DNA from: Thermodesulfobacteriota bacterium
GTDB lineage: Bacteria; Desulfobacterota_D; UBA1144; Nemesobacterales; UBA2774
Direction of reading: 5' to 3'
DNA: 64,000 nucleotides
Assembly: GCA_041753155.1 (NCBI GenBank)
Contig: JBGSVA010000041.1
Coordinates: 7,583-71,582 of the forward strand
Shown: positions 15,319-62,950 of the stretch, in pieces
Position numbering within the stretch: position 1 is the first letter of the stretch
How the letters are laid out: each line of letters opens with the position of its first letter
Notes under the pieces: generated by a model
What the model was told of the DNA's origin: nothing
Database searches by the model: none
Seen by the model: only the letters and a program-made list of their open reading frames with translations
Translations under genes and position numbers: made by a program

Positions 15319-15420
15319 CGGGGAGGCGCTTCCCATTTATCAGCGCACATTGTGTGTTGCTGATTCCGTGCATGTCGGGGAAAAAAAAGAGATTGCCGCG
15401 CTGAGCTCGCAGTCATAATT

Positions 15421-15710
15421 GTAGGAGCGGCTTCCAGCCGCGAATGGTAAAGACAAAGAAAAGGCAAGAATAATTCTCTTCTTTTCCTTGATGAAAAGAA
15501 GCAAAAATCATCCGACGCACATAATTTGCTAAAAATATCATATTAAGGCTAAAATCTTTCAATTCCACCCCATCCCTGAAAGATTTTCACGCCTTAATAA
15601 TCTATTTTCTTAACGCAAATTCTGTAATGTCGGGAAAGGAAAAAGATAGATTTCTCGCCTGCGGCTCGAAATGACAGATAAAATGAATCGCGGCTGGAAG
15701 CCGCTCCTAC
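15421..15710. repeat. Copy A of a structured intergenic repeat family. The core is ~15476-15637. It is bounded by perfect 23-bp terminal inverted repeats (gtaggagcggcttccagccgcga / tcgcggctggaagccgctcctac).
   Basis: The TIRs are exact reverse complements. The core is shared with copies at ~20728 and ~30088. Confidence 0.8.
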
Positions 15711-15737
15711 GGTTTATTATTGCCGCGTTCCGCATAA

Positions 15738-20539: not shown

Positions 20540-20700
20540 GCACACTTCGTGTGCACTCAGGACAGGCGGGTTTGGCTTCATTGCTGGTTTGAGTAGGAGA
20601 GGGATGGAAAGATCATAAAACACACATTGTGTGTGTTCTTCTTTGTCTTGATGAACACACGTAGTGTGGTCTATGAACTACTGCACACACAAAGTGTGTT
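20540..20700. repeat. Cluster of four CACAC-N3-GTGTG mini-hairpins at 20540-54, 20619-37, 20656-68 and 20684-99. A partial repeat-core start is also present.
   Basis: Perfect short inverted repeats read directly. A fifth similar hairpin sits at ~15347-15365 next to copy A. Confidence 0.6.
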
Positions 20701-20727
20701 TTATGAAAAGACAACTACAAAATTATT

Positions 20728-20935
20728 TTCTTCTTTGTCTGGATACAAAGAAGCAAAAATCATCCGACTACATAATTTGCTAAAAATCTTGTGTTGAAGC
20801 TAAAATCTTTCAATTAGAAAGCTGAAAGATTTTTATACGCTTAAACACGCGATTTTCTTAACGCAAATTCTGTAATGTCGGGAAGAGAAAAGCAAAAGAT
20901 AGATTTCTCGCGCTGCTCGAAATAACAAGATAAAG
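20728..20935. repeat. Copy B of the structured intergenic repeat family (core 20728-20884 plus tail)
   Basis: About 85% identical to copies A and C. Substitutions in the stems are compensatory. Confidence 0.8.
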
Positions 20936-29737: not shown

Positions 29738-30087
29738 ACGAGCCAACGCTGAACGTGATTCAGGGTTCAGGATGACTGAAATTATTGAGTGAAATGTAAC
29801 ACCCCCATCCTGACCTAATTTGGTTTAAGCAGCCTTGAGCCAGAAGTTAAGTTGCTTCGGCACCTTTGTTGGTAAGGCGACCTGTTGCTCATTTATTCGC
29901 AACAGTTCCCCCGCCTCGGGGGAAGGAATTAAAAGCTCAAAAAGATAAATTTCTCGTTTTGGTTTGTGCAGATCATATACGATGTCAATGCGAGTTATTT
30001 GCAATCAGCAAAGAGCGACCAATTCTTACGCTCGCTCAGAACTGTTGCTCGAAATGACAAAGAAAAGGCAAATATAGGCAACTATTA

Positions 30088-30247
30088 TTTCTTCTTTTCC
30101 TTGATGAAAAGAAGCAAAAATCATCCGACTGTACATAATTTGCTAAAAATCTTATGTTGAAGCTAAAATCTTTCAATTGGAAAGCTGAAAGATTTTCACG
30201 CTTCAACACGCGATTTTCTTAACGCAAATTCTGTAATGTCGGGAAAT
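30088..30247. repeat. Copy C of the structured intergenic repeat family. It is preceded (29935-30087) by head/tail fragments of the same family.
   Basis: Near-identical to copy A's core. The upstream flank shares aaaagataaatttctcg and gctcgaaatgaca...aagaaaaggcaa with the other copies. Confidence 0.8.
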
Positions 30248-30366
30248 ATAAATCCCACAGAATCCCAGCCTCGAATTACTTGACATCTACCGCAATGACA
30301 TATAAAAAGTAAATCCTCTCTCCCGAGATCGAGCCGTTATACTGTTCCCGCAGTTTGTATATTAAT

Positions 30367-31804: not shown

Positions 31805-31939
31805 ATCATTCCTCCTTAACGTATGTATGTAATCTCAATTTAACTATTTCGACCGAAGAAAGTCAAGCCGTGTATTGCGGTTATGACTAAGATTAAAATA
31901 CCTACGTTACCTGGCCGGACAGGCGGCTCTTTATGCCGG

Positions 31940-32055
31940 AGGGCGGGGGATTCGAACCCCCAAGTCCTTGCGGACGCAGGTTTTCAAGACCTATACCGCG
32001 CACGTTCTTAAGTCTCCAGAATTGTTGATATATTTTTAATTCCCTTTAACATACG
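31940..32055 (-). repeat. tRNA-Ser(UGA) 3'-half fragment (31940-31997) plus a conserved ~55-bp arm. This is copy T1 of a direct-repeat family.
   Basis: The minus strand reads GGTCTTGAAAACC..variable arm..GGGGGTTCGAATCCCCCGCCCTCCGGCA. No 5' half can be folded. Confidence 0.7.
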
Positions 32056-32118
32056 ATTACCAAAACAACCCCTGACACAAGTCCTGGTTTGTACATATAT
32101 TCACACATGCTCTTCCGA

Positions 32119-34353
32119 TCAGCGAGTAAAACGCCTTTGTCCGCAATAAGTTATAAAAGCGGAAATGACCAGCAGCGAAAGTCCCGCCAGGGAAATTAGA
32201 ACACCCGGAATCAAGCCATAGGGAATGTAACGGAGCTCTAACTGCCCCAATCCGGGACCTACACGGATGCCCATCAGAACCCCGTCCGCGACTTCCGGTG
32301 TAAACCATCCGCCGGGGCCGTGCCCGAATCTTACTCTCCAACCCCTGTCCCAAGTCTCCGCTACGACCAATGTCTTTTCCCGAGGTGTATCCCACGAAAT
32401 ACGCCAGTAGCCCGGCAGCCGCTCGTCAACTCTAAGCCCAATCTCCAGGTCTTCATCCGTATCGCCGGTCTCAAGCCATCGTACAACCGGCAGTCCATCA
32501 ACTAACCGGTATATAGAAGCATCCTCTCCATCATATACCTTTTTCAATCCTTCTACAGGAGCTCCATACCCGGGAGGGGTCAATATCCACCTCACCCCCA
32601 GTTTTCGAATCATCGGGGAGTTCCAGTCCGCTACCGGACTAAAATAGACCGGATTGTATCCGGCTGAGAATGCAGAATATGCCCTTTCATACCTCTCAAG
32701 CTTCACCACGTTATCGCCCCGAATATCATAGAGTCCGTATACCATGGCGGCGTTAGGATGGAGCGCCCCCCCTACCCCGGCGACGCGGCCGGGCTTATCC
32801 CGGAGGAACTCAATCGCCGGGGTGACGGGATAGAGCTCGTTCAGGGACAATCCCGGATTGATATTGCCGTGAGCGGCCAGGAGATCGAGAACCAGGATCA
32901 CCGGAATGGCAGGCCATATGTATTTTCTATAGGCGGGCTTGAAGAACAGAGTAAATGAAAAAATAGTAGCCGATCCGAGGACCCAGATTGTCCAATATAC
33001 CTGAGTATCGACGGTCCCCCTTTGTTCCCAAAGTTCGATAAAACCGAACCAGGTCACCGCGATCAATACCGCGACCGCCGCCGTCCCGATCAACATGGTT
33101 TTACCCGAGCCCTCTATCCAGCGGTTAAATCCGTATCCCGCAAGCAGAGCGAGCGAAAGTCCAATGGCAAACCTGAGTCGATGATAGATCACTTTCCCGA
33201 AGACGGGAATATCCTTGATCAGATCGAATTCAAGCGGCAGGATATACACAGCGAGGAAAGAAATTATCAGAATAGCCGATACCGCAAGCCACCTCCGGTC
33301 TTTCCAAAAATCACTCAGCCCTGCAGAAGCCAGCAATAGCGTTAATACGCCCGCATACACCGTCGTTCCGATATAATTGAATGGCCCCCACCAGGTGCCC
33401 GAAGCCGGGTTCCCCGTCATCTCGGGGAGGACAATCCTCAGAGGCTGAACCAATATCTCAATCCATTCAATGGCAGCACCCTTACCGCTGCCCTCATAAA
33501 GCCACTTACTGCTTTCGAATAAGGTAAATAGAAAAGGCAGGGTCACGACAGCCGAGAGCGCCGCAGCCACAATCCAGCCGAAGGCAAAACCTGCCCACGA
33601 CCGCAGCAAATCTTGCGAACCCCTGACAAGCAAATATAGAGTAGATATCATCGCCGTGAGGATCACTGTCTCGGGATGTCCGGCTAAAAGCTCGAGCCCC
33701 GCGGTCACGCTCAACATCCGCCAGCCGCCTTTTCCGTTCGCAATCCGCTCTACAGACCAGAGGACCCAGGGAACGAGCGCAAAGGCGTTCGACATGGGAA
33801 CCAAAAGCCATGCGACGGGTAAGCCCGAGAGCGGGTAAATGAGACAGGCTACGAGAGAGCCGCGCTGTCCCAATCCAAGCTCTCTCGCAAGATACCACAC
33901 GCCGAGGCCCGCTATCACGAACCTGAGCCACGGCAGCAAAACGAACGACAATTGAAGGGGCAACACCACGAACAACAGATGTAAAGGGAATAAAGGAGCA
34001 CCGGAGCCGTTACTCCAGTAAGGGGTTCCCGAGAACTGATGAGGATCCCAGAACGGAAGCCTCCCCTGCCTCATCTCGTGACGGAGAAACAAGAGCCACG
34101 GCTGAACCTGATGAGTCACGTCCCGCAGGTGGGGGTTACCCTTCCCTGCATCCGCAACACCTTCCCAGGGTGCGAATTGCGCCATTGTCGCAGCGGGGCT
34201 CGGAATTCCGTCGGGGATAGTGAGTGCAGGCATCAATAGCGCTGCTCCCGAGATTCCCAAAGCGAAAAATGCGATCCCAAAACCCCTTCTTTTATATATC
34301 AATCCGATGCAGCTGAGGGCAAGGAGAAGCGGTAAGATCGGGTTAATGTTCAA
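32119..34353 (-). CDS. Large polytopic membrane protein, YfhO/GT-C-like (putative membrane glycosyltransferase)
   Basis: About 20 TM helices with large periplasmic loops. The size and topology fit the YfhO family. Confidence 0.5.
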   Translation of the reverse strand: MNINPILPLLLALSCIGLIYKRRGFGIAFFALGISGAALLMPALTIPDGIPSPAATMAQFAPWEGVADAGKGNPHLRDVTHQVQPWLLFLRHEMRQGRLPFWDPHQFSGTPYWSNGSGAPLFPLHLLFVVLPLQLSFVLLPWLRFVIAGLGVWYLARELGLGQRGSLVACLIYPLSGLPVAWLLVPMSNAFALVPWVLWSVERIANGKGGWRMLSVTAGLELLAGHPETVILTAMISTLYLLVRGSQDLLRSWAGFAFGWIVAAALSAVVTLPFLFTLFESSKWLYEGSGKGAAIEWIEILVQPLRIVLPEMTGNPASGTWWGPFNYIGTTVYAGVLTLLLASAGLSDFWKDRRWLAVSAILIISFLAVYILPLEFDLIKDIPVFGKVIYHRLRFAIGLSLALLAGYGFNRWIEGSGKTMLIGTAAVAVLIAVTWFGFIELWEQRGTVDTQVYWTIWVLGSATIFSFTLFFKPAYRKYIWPAIPVILVLDLLAAHGNINPGLSLNELYPVTPAIEFLRDKPGRVAGVGGALHPNAAMVYGLYDIRGDNVVKLERYERAYSAFSAGYNPVYFSPVADWNSPMIRKLGVRWILTPPGYGAPVEGLKKVYDGEDASIYRLVDGLPVVRWLETGDTDEDLEIGLRVDERLPGYWRISWDTPREKTLVVAETWDRGWRVRFGHGPGGWFTPEVADGVLMGIRVGPGLGQLELRYIPYGLIPGVLISLAGLSLLVISAFITYCGQRRFTR

Positions 34354-51209: not shown

Positions 51210-51412
51210 TGGCGGAGGGCGAGGGATTCGAACCCCCAAGTCCTTGCGGACGCCGGTTTTCAAGACCTATATCGCGCACGTTCTTAAGTCTCCAGAATTG
51301 TTGAAATATTTCTAATTCCCCTTTAATAAACGAATTCCATCTATTCCATATGGTCTACTGAGTATATATGATTCGAATAATTACGGATGGTTCTTAGAAA
51401 ATGCTTGGAAAG
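51210..51412 (-). repeat. tRNA-Ser(UGA) 3'-half fragment (51210-51267) plus a ~145-bp conserved arm. This is copy T2.
   Basis: The minus strand reads ...GGGGGTTCGAATCCCTCGCCCTCCGCCA. The arm shares ctttaataaacgaattccatctattccatatggtcta and ggatggttcttagaaaatgctt with T3. Confidence 0.75.
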
Positions 51413-53416: not shown

Positions 53417-53620
53417 TGGCGGAGGGCGAGGGATTCGAACCCCCAAGTCCTTGCGGACGCCGGTTTTCAAGACCTAATTAGTATCCATTCTTAACTTTCC
53501 GGGATCATTGAAATATTTTTAACTCCCATTTAATAAACGAATTCCATCTATTCCATATGGTCTATTGATTCTATATGGTGGCAAGAATTACGGATGGTTC
53601 TTAGAAAATGCTTAGAAAAT
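53417..53620 (-). repeat. tRNA-Ser(UGA) 3'-half fragment (53417-53474) plus conserved arm. This is copy T3.
   Basis: Fragment identical to T2. The arm is diverged proximally but conserved distally. Confidence 0.75.
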
Positions 53621-62357: not shown

Positions 62358-62916
62358 TTCTACCTGAGAAGCATGAATCAGCTTTAAGATGCATTTGCTG
62401 CATTATAATTATCTTTATTGTGTAACGTGCAAAAACTGTGCCAGAGTTTGTTTTTGGATGCAATTGGTTGTAAGCAAAGGATATTTTCACCGGAATGTCC
62501 AAAAACCGTCATATTGATTGACAAATTTTGCCAGTAATACTCAATGAGTGACCTAAAGACGTTTTCTGTTCGCCGGATAAATTTCTTCTCGATTCGGAAT
62601 AAGTGAAAAAGTAGTTATTTAAATTATATGTCGCCCATGTTCTTTAGAGAGATATAGCGTGCCTGGAGGGAGTTGACCACCAAAGCTTTGTATCCTTAAC
62701 ATGATTTGAGGATATGTCCCGTACTTCAGGAAGAACTTCACAGCTTTCCTCAGATGCATCTAAATCACCCTCAATTTGTATGACAATCTTATAAAATAGA
62801 TTTTATTAATTGTCGCAGGGAATTATAACTCATTGAGATGATTGGTATTATATTACGAATTAACGCCGCCGACTCCAGCCATATGATCTTTTTATCATGC
62901 ATGGAAGAAAGAATGA

Positions 62917-62950
62917 TGGATGGTTCTTAGAATATTCTTAGAAAAAATAA
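62917..62950. repeat. Remnant (T4) of the distal arm of the tRNA-fragment repeat (ggatggttcttagaa.a.tcttagaaaa)
   Basis: A ~30-bp match to the distal arm of T2/T3. Confidence 0.4.

Follow-up and report, generated by a model that had tools for sequence, protein, structure and literature searches.

The 64-kb stretch of DNA analyzed here (the window) carries three look-alike copies of an intergenic sequence element, all in the same orientation on the + strand. Copy A (covariance-model boundaries 15469–15641) lies between genes for a Na/Ca exchanger and a PIG-L protein, copy B (20721–20889) between carA and an iorB-like gene, and copy C (30082–30250) between an amidase gene accompanied by a small ORF and rsmI; the flanking genes are convergent at all three sites. 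An earlier note on this DNA had claimed three copies of about 165 bp, and these are readily recovered: a 22-mer taken from the 3′ block that the copies share turns up three times in the window, where shuffled sequence gives an expectation of 0.00, and a covariance model finds only the three known copies there. Pairwise identity is 86% between A and C and 92% between B and C.

Position-wise information content extends the conserved unit to ~200 nt. It starts ~37 nt upstream of the first hairpin (H1), with a purine tract of ~23 nt and a T-rich tract of ~10 nt, continues through H1, the linker CAAAAATCA and a rod (stems P1–P5), and ends ~10 nt past GTCGG, within a second purine tract. H1 has 9 bp and a 6-nt loop, and the rod is an imperfect palindrome of 125 nt. 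In copy A the full unit spans 15449–15645 (+ strand), with the purine tract at 15449–15472, a T-rich tract, H1 at 15478–15501 (CTTCTTTTC-CTTGAT-GAAAAGAAG), the linker, a long imperfect palindromic rod from TCCGAC to GTCGGG at 15511–15634, and the 3′ purine tract. Copy B occupies 20703–20897 (+), with H1 at 20730–20753 in a compensatory GT/AC variant and the rod at 20763–20882, and copy C occupies 30055–30250 (+), with H1 at 30091–30114 and the rod at 30124–30243.

The stems originally proposed fare unevenly against this anatomy. The first is as described, with CTTCTTTTC/GAAAAGAAG in A and C replaced by CTTCTTTGT/ACAAAGAAG in B. The outer stem of the second hairpin, given as ATTAAGGC/GCCTTAAT in A and GTTGAAGC/GCTTCAAC in C, is present in both copies, with one mismatch at that place in B; in copy A it forms the apical stem of the rod and closes a loop of the long CCACCCCATCC type. 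The inner stem AAAATCTTTCA/TGAAAGATTTT, called invariant, is identical in the three window copies but covaries across the family, and the 3′ part said to be strictly conserved reduces to a shared 33-nt block, ATTTTCTTAACGCAAATTCTGTAATGTCGGGAA; copy A lacks the leading 'cgcg'. That description missed the long-range pairings TCCGAC/GTCGG, TACA(G/T)AATTTGC/GCAAATTCTGTA and AAAATC/GATTTT, which turn the second hairpin into the 125-nt rod, with arms that pair over about 45 bp. Conservation exceeds 95% in H1, the linker and the basal rod parts P1–P3, also in 36 aligned copies that were not picked by the 22-mer, and variation falls in P4, the top of P5 and the loop.

The window holds a second, unrelated repeat family, in which ~200-nt direct repeats (87% identical; 51210–51411 and 53417–53618) flank a low-GC gene pair encoding a TetR protein and an alpha/beta-hydrolase, with weaker copies at 31934–32135 and 62879–62945. 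Between ~41000 and 64000 the G+C content falls to about 0.45 from about 0.54, and almost every gene is on the − strand; this region may be of different origin.

An abundant family restricted to Dadabacteria-type genomes

Exact matches to the 22-mer were found in at least 89 stretches of a genome collection and, among the matches listed, all fall in six Dadabacteria-type MAGs, which are labeled variously as Candidatus Dadabacteria, 'Thermodesulfobacteriota', 'delta proteobacterium' or 'uncultured bacterium'. Dadabacteria, a phylum without cultivated members, is known from MAGs alone. Trained on 84 distinct copies, a covariance model recovered about 165 top-strand copies in 698 kb from the six MAGs, about 40 of them without the exact 22-mer, and what had been presented as a family of three is instead lineage-wide. 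The same model found 0 copies in 459 kb of metagenome loci around carA relatives, the nearest of which are only 60–69% identical; these loci, considered as possible empty sites, served solely as a negative control. An exact look-up of the carA protein gave no record.

A check against Rfam left the element without a match (0 at gathering and E-value thresholds in the window and 13 loci; the best sub-threshold hits were at chance level, E about 2), BLAST searches of plasmid and phage collections returned no match to it, and a limited full-text literature search on Dadabacteria repeats showed no such element in any of the papers listed. The family is, apparently, an undescribed and very abundant hairpin-forming repeat that fills intergenic DNA in Dadabacteria-type bacteria. 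Three IMG/VR contigs catalogued as viral (L170, L171 and L172) each carry two to three co-oriented copies, and L170 also carries up to five copies of a REP-like module described below; these contigs may be host fragments or Dadabacteria prophages.

Density is very uneven, reaching 6 copies per 8 kb in some contigs as against 3 in the 64-kb window. The element-richest contigs carry tandem arrays of paralogous small secreted proteins that end in an IPTL-CTERM-like sorting signal, IPTLSEWGMIAAAAGLGLIGVFFAVRRKRA (32 members in the sample; arrays in L011, L050, L064, L076, L085 and L086), and these arrays are the sole gene family enriched near elements. Element subfamilies are common to all genomes sampled. 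The window copies are 93–97% identical to copies in other genomes, compared with 86–92% to their window siblings, which implies that the subfamilies either predate these genomes or have been exchanged between them. No orthologous genes were found between the window and the MAG loci.

Compensatory change and a possible RNA

Covariation was tested by applying a hand-mapped structure of 50 pairs to an alignment of 148 copies. Standard pairs fill 94.6% of the cells, and 18 of the 50 pairs show changes on both sides, in 232 cells where shuffling predicts 60. None of 500 shuffles reached any of five measures, and sliding the partners by 1–3 columns lowered pairing to 37–47%. Double substitutions therefore preserve complementarity far beyond both the shuffled and the slid controls, which bears out the view of the earlier note that the copies did not arise by neutral duplication. 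Because the family is divided into subfamilies, many of the covarying cells were inherited and do not record independent events; the distinct pair types at single positions (AU/UA/CG/GC in P4, CG/UA and AU/GC in P5, UA/GC with CG/UA in H1) point to roughly a dozen independent double substitutions. The most abundant subfamily tolerates two central mismatches in P4.

Complementarity is thus under selection, and covariation alone cannot separate an RNA structure from a requirement for a DNA hairpin or inverted repeat. Pairing is almost wholly of one class: Watson-Crick pairs account for 6870 cells, G·U for 24 and A·C for 49, so that neither strand shows the wobble signature expected of a selected RNA. 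A structured RNA family, either an sRNA or a cis-acting RNA that stabilizes mRNA 3′ ends or terminates transcription arriving from the 3′ side, would nonetheless draw support from the strong covariation, from folding energies well below those of shuffled sequence (z = -8.6 and -9.0 for the two strands as RNA, -7.8 as DNA), and from the 93–97% sequence conservation between genomes. REP and BOX elements, which are known to affect mRNA stability (reference list of PMC6006769), offer a precedent.

Signals for transcription divide in the same way. All three window copies contain a sigma-70-like TTGCTA-18-TAAAAT site, as an RNA gene might, but the -35-like hexamer is not conserved across the family (TTAGCT, TACGCT, TGTGCT) and the largest subfamily has a different -10, TAAATC, on which grounds we rejected an internal promoter. 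An intrinsic terminator on the element strand was likewise rejected: the rod is followed there by a purine tract with no U-run, and a scan marked no terminator at the element. On the other strand the rod runs into TGATTTTTG, a terminator-like T-run, and in 61 of 99 cases the gene on the 3′ side of the element is directed toward it. Both observations count in favor of a cis-acting RNA, and together they raise the possibility of a side role in stopping antisense transcription.

Coding potential was also considered. A candidate small ORF, ATGAAAAGAC..TGCTAA, running through the purine tract and H1, was discarded because 108 of 151 copies lack an in-frame ATG, and across those 151 copies all three frames are similarly open. 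The family is also largely extragenic, with 4 of 132 copies running into a called ORF of 110 aa or longer.

Genomic placement bears on the same question. Among 99 copies classified by spacer, 25 lie between convergent genes, 19 between tandem genes co-oriented with the element, 36 between tandem genes in the opposite orientation and 19 between divergent genes. Every spacer type is occupied, so the convergent setting, accurately reported for the three window copies, is not a trait of the family, and the 19 copies in divergent promoter spacers count against an RNA. Many copies, moreover, are truncated or have the P1 partner swapped for another module, and RNA genes do not usually number in the hundreds of near-identical copies per genome. 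Weighing these points together with the missing G·U excess, we regard a structured RNA as an unlikely explanation. Of the candidates first listed (an sRNA, a REP/BIME-like element or a MITE), the sRNA gains no specific support and a REP/BIME-like or MITE-like element fits best.

Nesting, turnover and polarity

Spacer A (15319–15737) is a mosaic throughout, beginning with a CACA..TGTG palindrome and continuing with a remnant of an element 3′ end, ATGTCGGGG (15372–15380), a purine tract and a GAGATTGCCGCG..GCAGTCA module (together 15372–15416, + strand). Directly 5′ of copy A follows a REP-like module, GTAGGAGCGGCTTCCAGCCGCGA (15421–15443, +), with a GTAG foot and a GC hairpin; beyond copy A come a partner module, GATAGATTTCTCGC..GCTCGAAATGACAG (15645–15677, +), and an exact inverted copy of the REP-like module (15688–15710, −), so that a perfect 23-nt pair brackets copy A and the module after it. 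The REP-like module occurs 52 times in the MAG loci, often 30–50 nt 5′ of the element, which suggests that Dadabacteria-type genomes also host a classical REP/RAYT system. The GATAGATTTCTCGC module recurs at 20898–20929 and, split in two, at 29944–29957 plus 30042–30062, and is always co-oriented with the element (24:0 in loci). Upstream of copy B, a solo H1 5′ arm, TTCTTCTTTGTCTTGATGAA, is interrupted by a CACACGTAGTGTGG palindrome module (20636–20669, +). The remnant 3′ end (15372–15380) and the interrupted arm (20636–20655) indicate decay and nesting inside the window itself.

Similar rearrangements recur across the family. Truncated copies and chimeras are frequent, among them copies with the CACACGTAGTGTGG module in place of the TCCGAC arm and copies with a TTCGAC..GCTCAG..GAACGG module in place of the distal rod, and at some sites H1 occurs without a rod. 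A ~90-nt domain, whose 5′ part varies and which ends in a conserved hairpin, GGGCGTCCGAWTSC..GSAWTCGTCCC, is nested in about 25 copies, each time at the same position of the P5 loop. It also sits in loops of two further families of hairpin repeats, and its orientation never changes (loci L016, L018, L019, L022, L030 and others; also L013, L023, L040 and L064).

Orthologous spacers whose flanking genes are 78–95% identical differ in module content between genomes, and in one pair the element is present (L087) in one spacer and absent from the other (L006). We recovered no recent insertion or excision polymorphism that was clean and had exact ends, the sole indel among loci at least 92% identical being unrelated to the element, so we infer mobility from turnover rather than from observed movement. 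Target-site duplication was considered and rejected: flank similarity was 6.25, compared with 6.39 for permuted flanks (p = 0.84), and an apparent 15-nt duplication in the L087/L006 comparison did not generalize.

Element orientation is independent of the orientation of neighboring genes, and it is uniform within loci: none of 90 loci, 56 of them with at least two hits, contains both orientations. The orientation is shared by at least seven further repeat modules (80:4, 90:1, 49:1, 24:0, 22:0 and similar), and the REP-like GTAGGAGCGGCTTCCAGCCGC occurs both ways relative to it (32:14). As evidence on the basis of this polarity we used GC3 skew of genes only, in place of whole-locus GC skew, which was set aside because the purine-rich repeats might themselves produce it. 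In MAG loci, genes that run with the element have a GC3 skew of +0.013 and those that run against it one of -0.132 (p = 2.5e-24), and the difference survives removal of the IPTL-CTERM family and of dense contigs (p = 2.6e-7). In 69 of 86 MAG loci the element lies on the G-rich strand. On chromosome-scale contigs the association is weaker (p = 0.007; 13 of 19 loci agree), and in the window it has the opposite sign, with the copies on a strand that is slightly C-rich (GC3 skew of + genes, -0.049; of − genes, +0.009; p = 0.025). The G-rich strand is conventionally taken as the leading strand, which doubles as the lagging-strand template.

Such polarity could also mark a host-domesticated DNA signal, a binding site or architectural element that is orientation-dependent with respect to replication and kept by selection rather than transposition; BIMEs bound by IHF or gyrase and polar chromosome-organizing motifs are comparable cases. 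The correlation of uniform polarity with strand compositional skew, the near-invariance of the basal sequence blocks across species and the presence of the same subfamilies in all genomes would fit this proposal. The extremely uneven density (6 per 8 kb versus 3 per 64 kb), the gain and loss of the element in orthologous spacers, the tolerance of truncated and nested copies and the opposite-skew placement of the window copies would not, and we judge it improbable.

A classical MITE derived from a DDE transposon, with the rod arms as terminal inverted repeats to which a single transposase binds and H1 as a passenger or preferred target, can be weighed against the same observations. The arms align as inverted repeats of 26–31 nt, CCGAC(AT)TACAGAATTTGC.., the ends are conserved and the center variable, the covariance model also matches the reverse strand over positions 44–165, and H1 is found without a rod at some sites. 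Against this, conservation reaches ~70 nt 5′ of the left arm and only ~10 nt 3′ of the right arm, which means that the inverted repeats of the rod are not terminal, and the element shows no target-site duplication. Strict polarity, together with co-orientation with unrelated modules, would be unexpected for a symmetric inverted-repeat element, and the 0.7 Mb examined contains no parent IS or transposase. This origin, too, has little probability in our estimation. The three alternatives — RNA, domesticated signal and MITE — overlap with each other and with the reading developed below.

Relation to known elements and a candidate mechanism

High-copy intergenic palindromes are a known kind of sequence, and one close comparison is with REP, BIME and REPIN elements, which RAYT (TnpA-REP) Y1 transposases mobilize. 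Like these, the element is a high-copy extragenic palindrome with a hairpin-forming doublet of inverted arms, it belongs to several families and subfamilies per genome that form mosaic clusters with other motifs, and it lacks target-site duplications; a canonical-looking REP (GTAG plus GC hairpin) even adjoins copy A as an inverted pair. A hallmark of REPs and REPINs is a conserved 5′ GT[AG]G tetranucleotide at the hairpin foot (PMC6006769). The element lacks this foot, its rod having CTACA(G/T) on one strand and ATTACAG on the other, whereas the neighboring GTAGGAGCGGCTTCCAGCCGC module does carry it. The element also differs in its greater length (~200 nt) and its asymmetry, which comes from an additional hairpin at the 5′ side along with purine and T tracts, in being strictly polar where REPs occur in both orientations, and in the lack of a match in 0.79 Mb to RAYT, whose gene the repeats usually flank.

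PATEs, which derive from IS200/IS605 transposons, resemble it in other respects. Both lack terminal inverted repeats at their true ends, lack duplications and have dissimilar hairpins near the ends, and insertion into single-stranded regions is plausible for the loop-nested modules. PATEs show an orientation bias linked to the replication strand (PMC5027513), to be compared with the preference of the element for the G-rich strand in MAG loci and the opposite placement in the window. In contrast to PATEs, no cognate tnpA or tnpB was found in the sampled DNA and no conserved 4–5-nt target was identified 5′ of the left end of the element, where only a generic purine and T tract lies, and its right-end structure is the 125-nt rod rather than a short subterminal hairpin.

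Further parallels are found in BOX elements of Streptococcus pneumoniae, ERIC and Correia/NEMIS sequences, which are likewise modular assemblies of boxes that recur, are predicted to fold stably, reach 100 or more copies in intergenic DNA and have no known mobilizing enzyme. There is no sequence relationship to any of these, the Dadabacteria modules are polar and nested in loops, and the terminal inverted repeats and TA duplication of Correia elements are absent. Integron attC sites are likewise imperfect palindromes that are used as folded single strands in one orientation, but their conserved R/L box pattern and an integrase are both missing here, and the element lies between housekeeping genes in every orientation context. 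The element is neither a canonical REP nor a MITE by the features that define those classes, and its asymmetric H1-plus-rod build, the polarity it shares with partner modules and the loop-in-loop nesting have no counterpart in Rfam or among the papers listed by a limited full-text search.

The best-supported description is of a new REP/REPIN/PATE-like family of non-coding repeats embedded in a polar mosaic of several such families. Taken together, a small piece of mobile or parasitic non-coding DNA is the most likely identity of the element, ahead of a gene for a regulatory RNA, and we consider it probable, with moderate confidence, that it is a DNA repeat or mobile element in which selection acts on the hairpins. 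On this reading, the near-invariant parts (H1, the linker and 30 nt at the base of each rod arm) would be the ones most likely recognized during propagation or maintenance, and the apical stems would be free to change so long as they still pair, giving rise to the compensatory substitutions. The unit would probably function as DNA, in the form of single-stranded hairpins that become exposed as the replication fork passes.

How such a unit might be copied or moved is a more tentative matter. A strand-specific, duplication-free mechanism of the HUH/Y1 type, as for IS200/IS605 derivatives or REPs and REPINs, is the leading candidate, and we hold it as a possibility that falls somewhat short of even odds. 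It would explain the lack of terminal inverted repeats at the true ends and of target-site duplications, and equally the insertion of modules into hairpin loops and the strict, shared head-to-tail polarity. IS200/IS605 elements excise from and insert into the lagging-strand template (PMC5027513), show replication-linked orientation and need single-stranded hairpins (PMC5027513, PMC6006769). Searches for a responsible enzyme in the sampled DNA were negative: six-frame ORFs of 0.79 Mb contained no HUH/Y1 transposase motif, phmmer with E. coli RayT gave no match at E<=10 in the same 0.79 Mb, and clustering of neighboring ORFs in 0.7 Mb revealed no multicopy enzyme gene, parent IS or transposase near the elements.

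A bolder version, to which we give only a small chance, would unite the element and its co-oriented modules into one previously undescribed, replication-polarized and hierarchical repeat system, with hairpins set within hairpin loops and purine-rich linkers between them. These repeats make up most of the intergenic DNA examined around copies in a Dadabacteria clade, all of spacer A for example, and the system would be driven by an unrecognized enzyme for single-strand DNA mobilization or by a host function that reads polarity.

Beyond its mechanism, the family is a clean example of a case in which covariation by itself does not imply an RNA gene, and it could show how polarity, loop nesting and the absence of duplications originate. 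Should an enzyme acting on single-stranded DNA prove responsible, it would probably recognize the conserved H1 and the base of the rod, and the resulting enzyme-substrate pair would be of interest for HUH-based tools. The covariance model is ready for use in annotating Dadabacteria genomes, in which this dense repeat system shapes the intergenic DNA, breaks assemblies at repeats and can mislead annotation.
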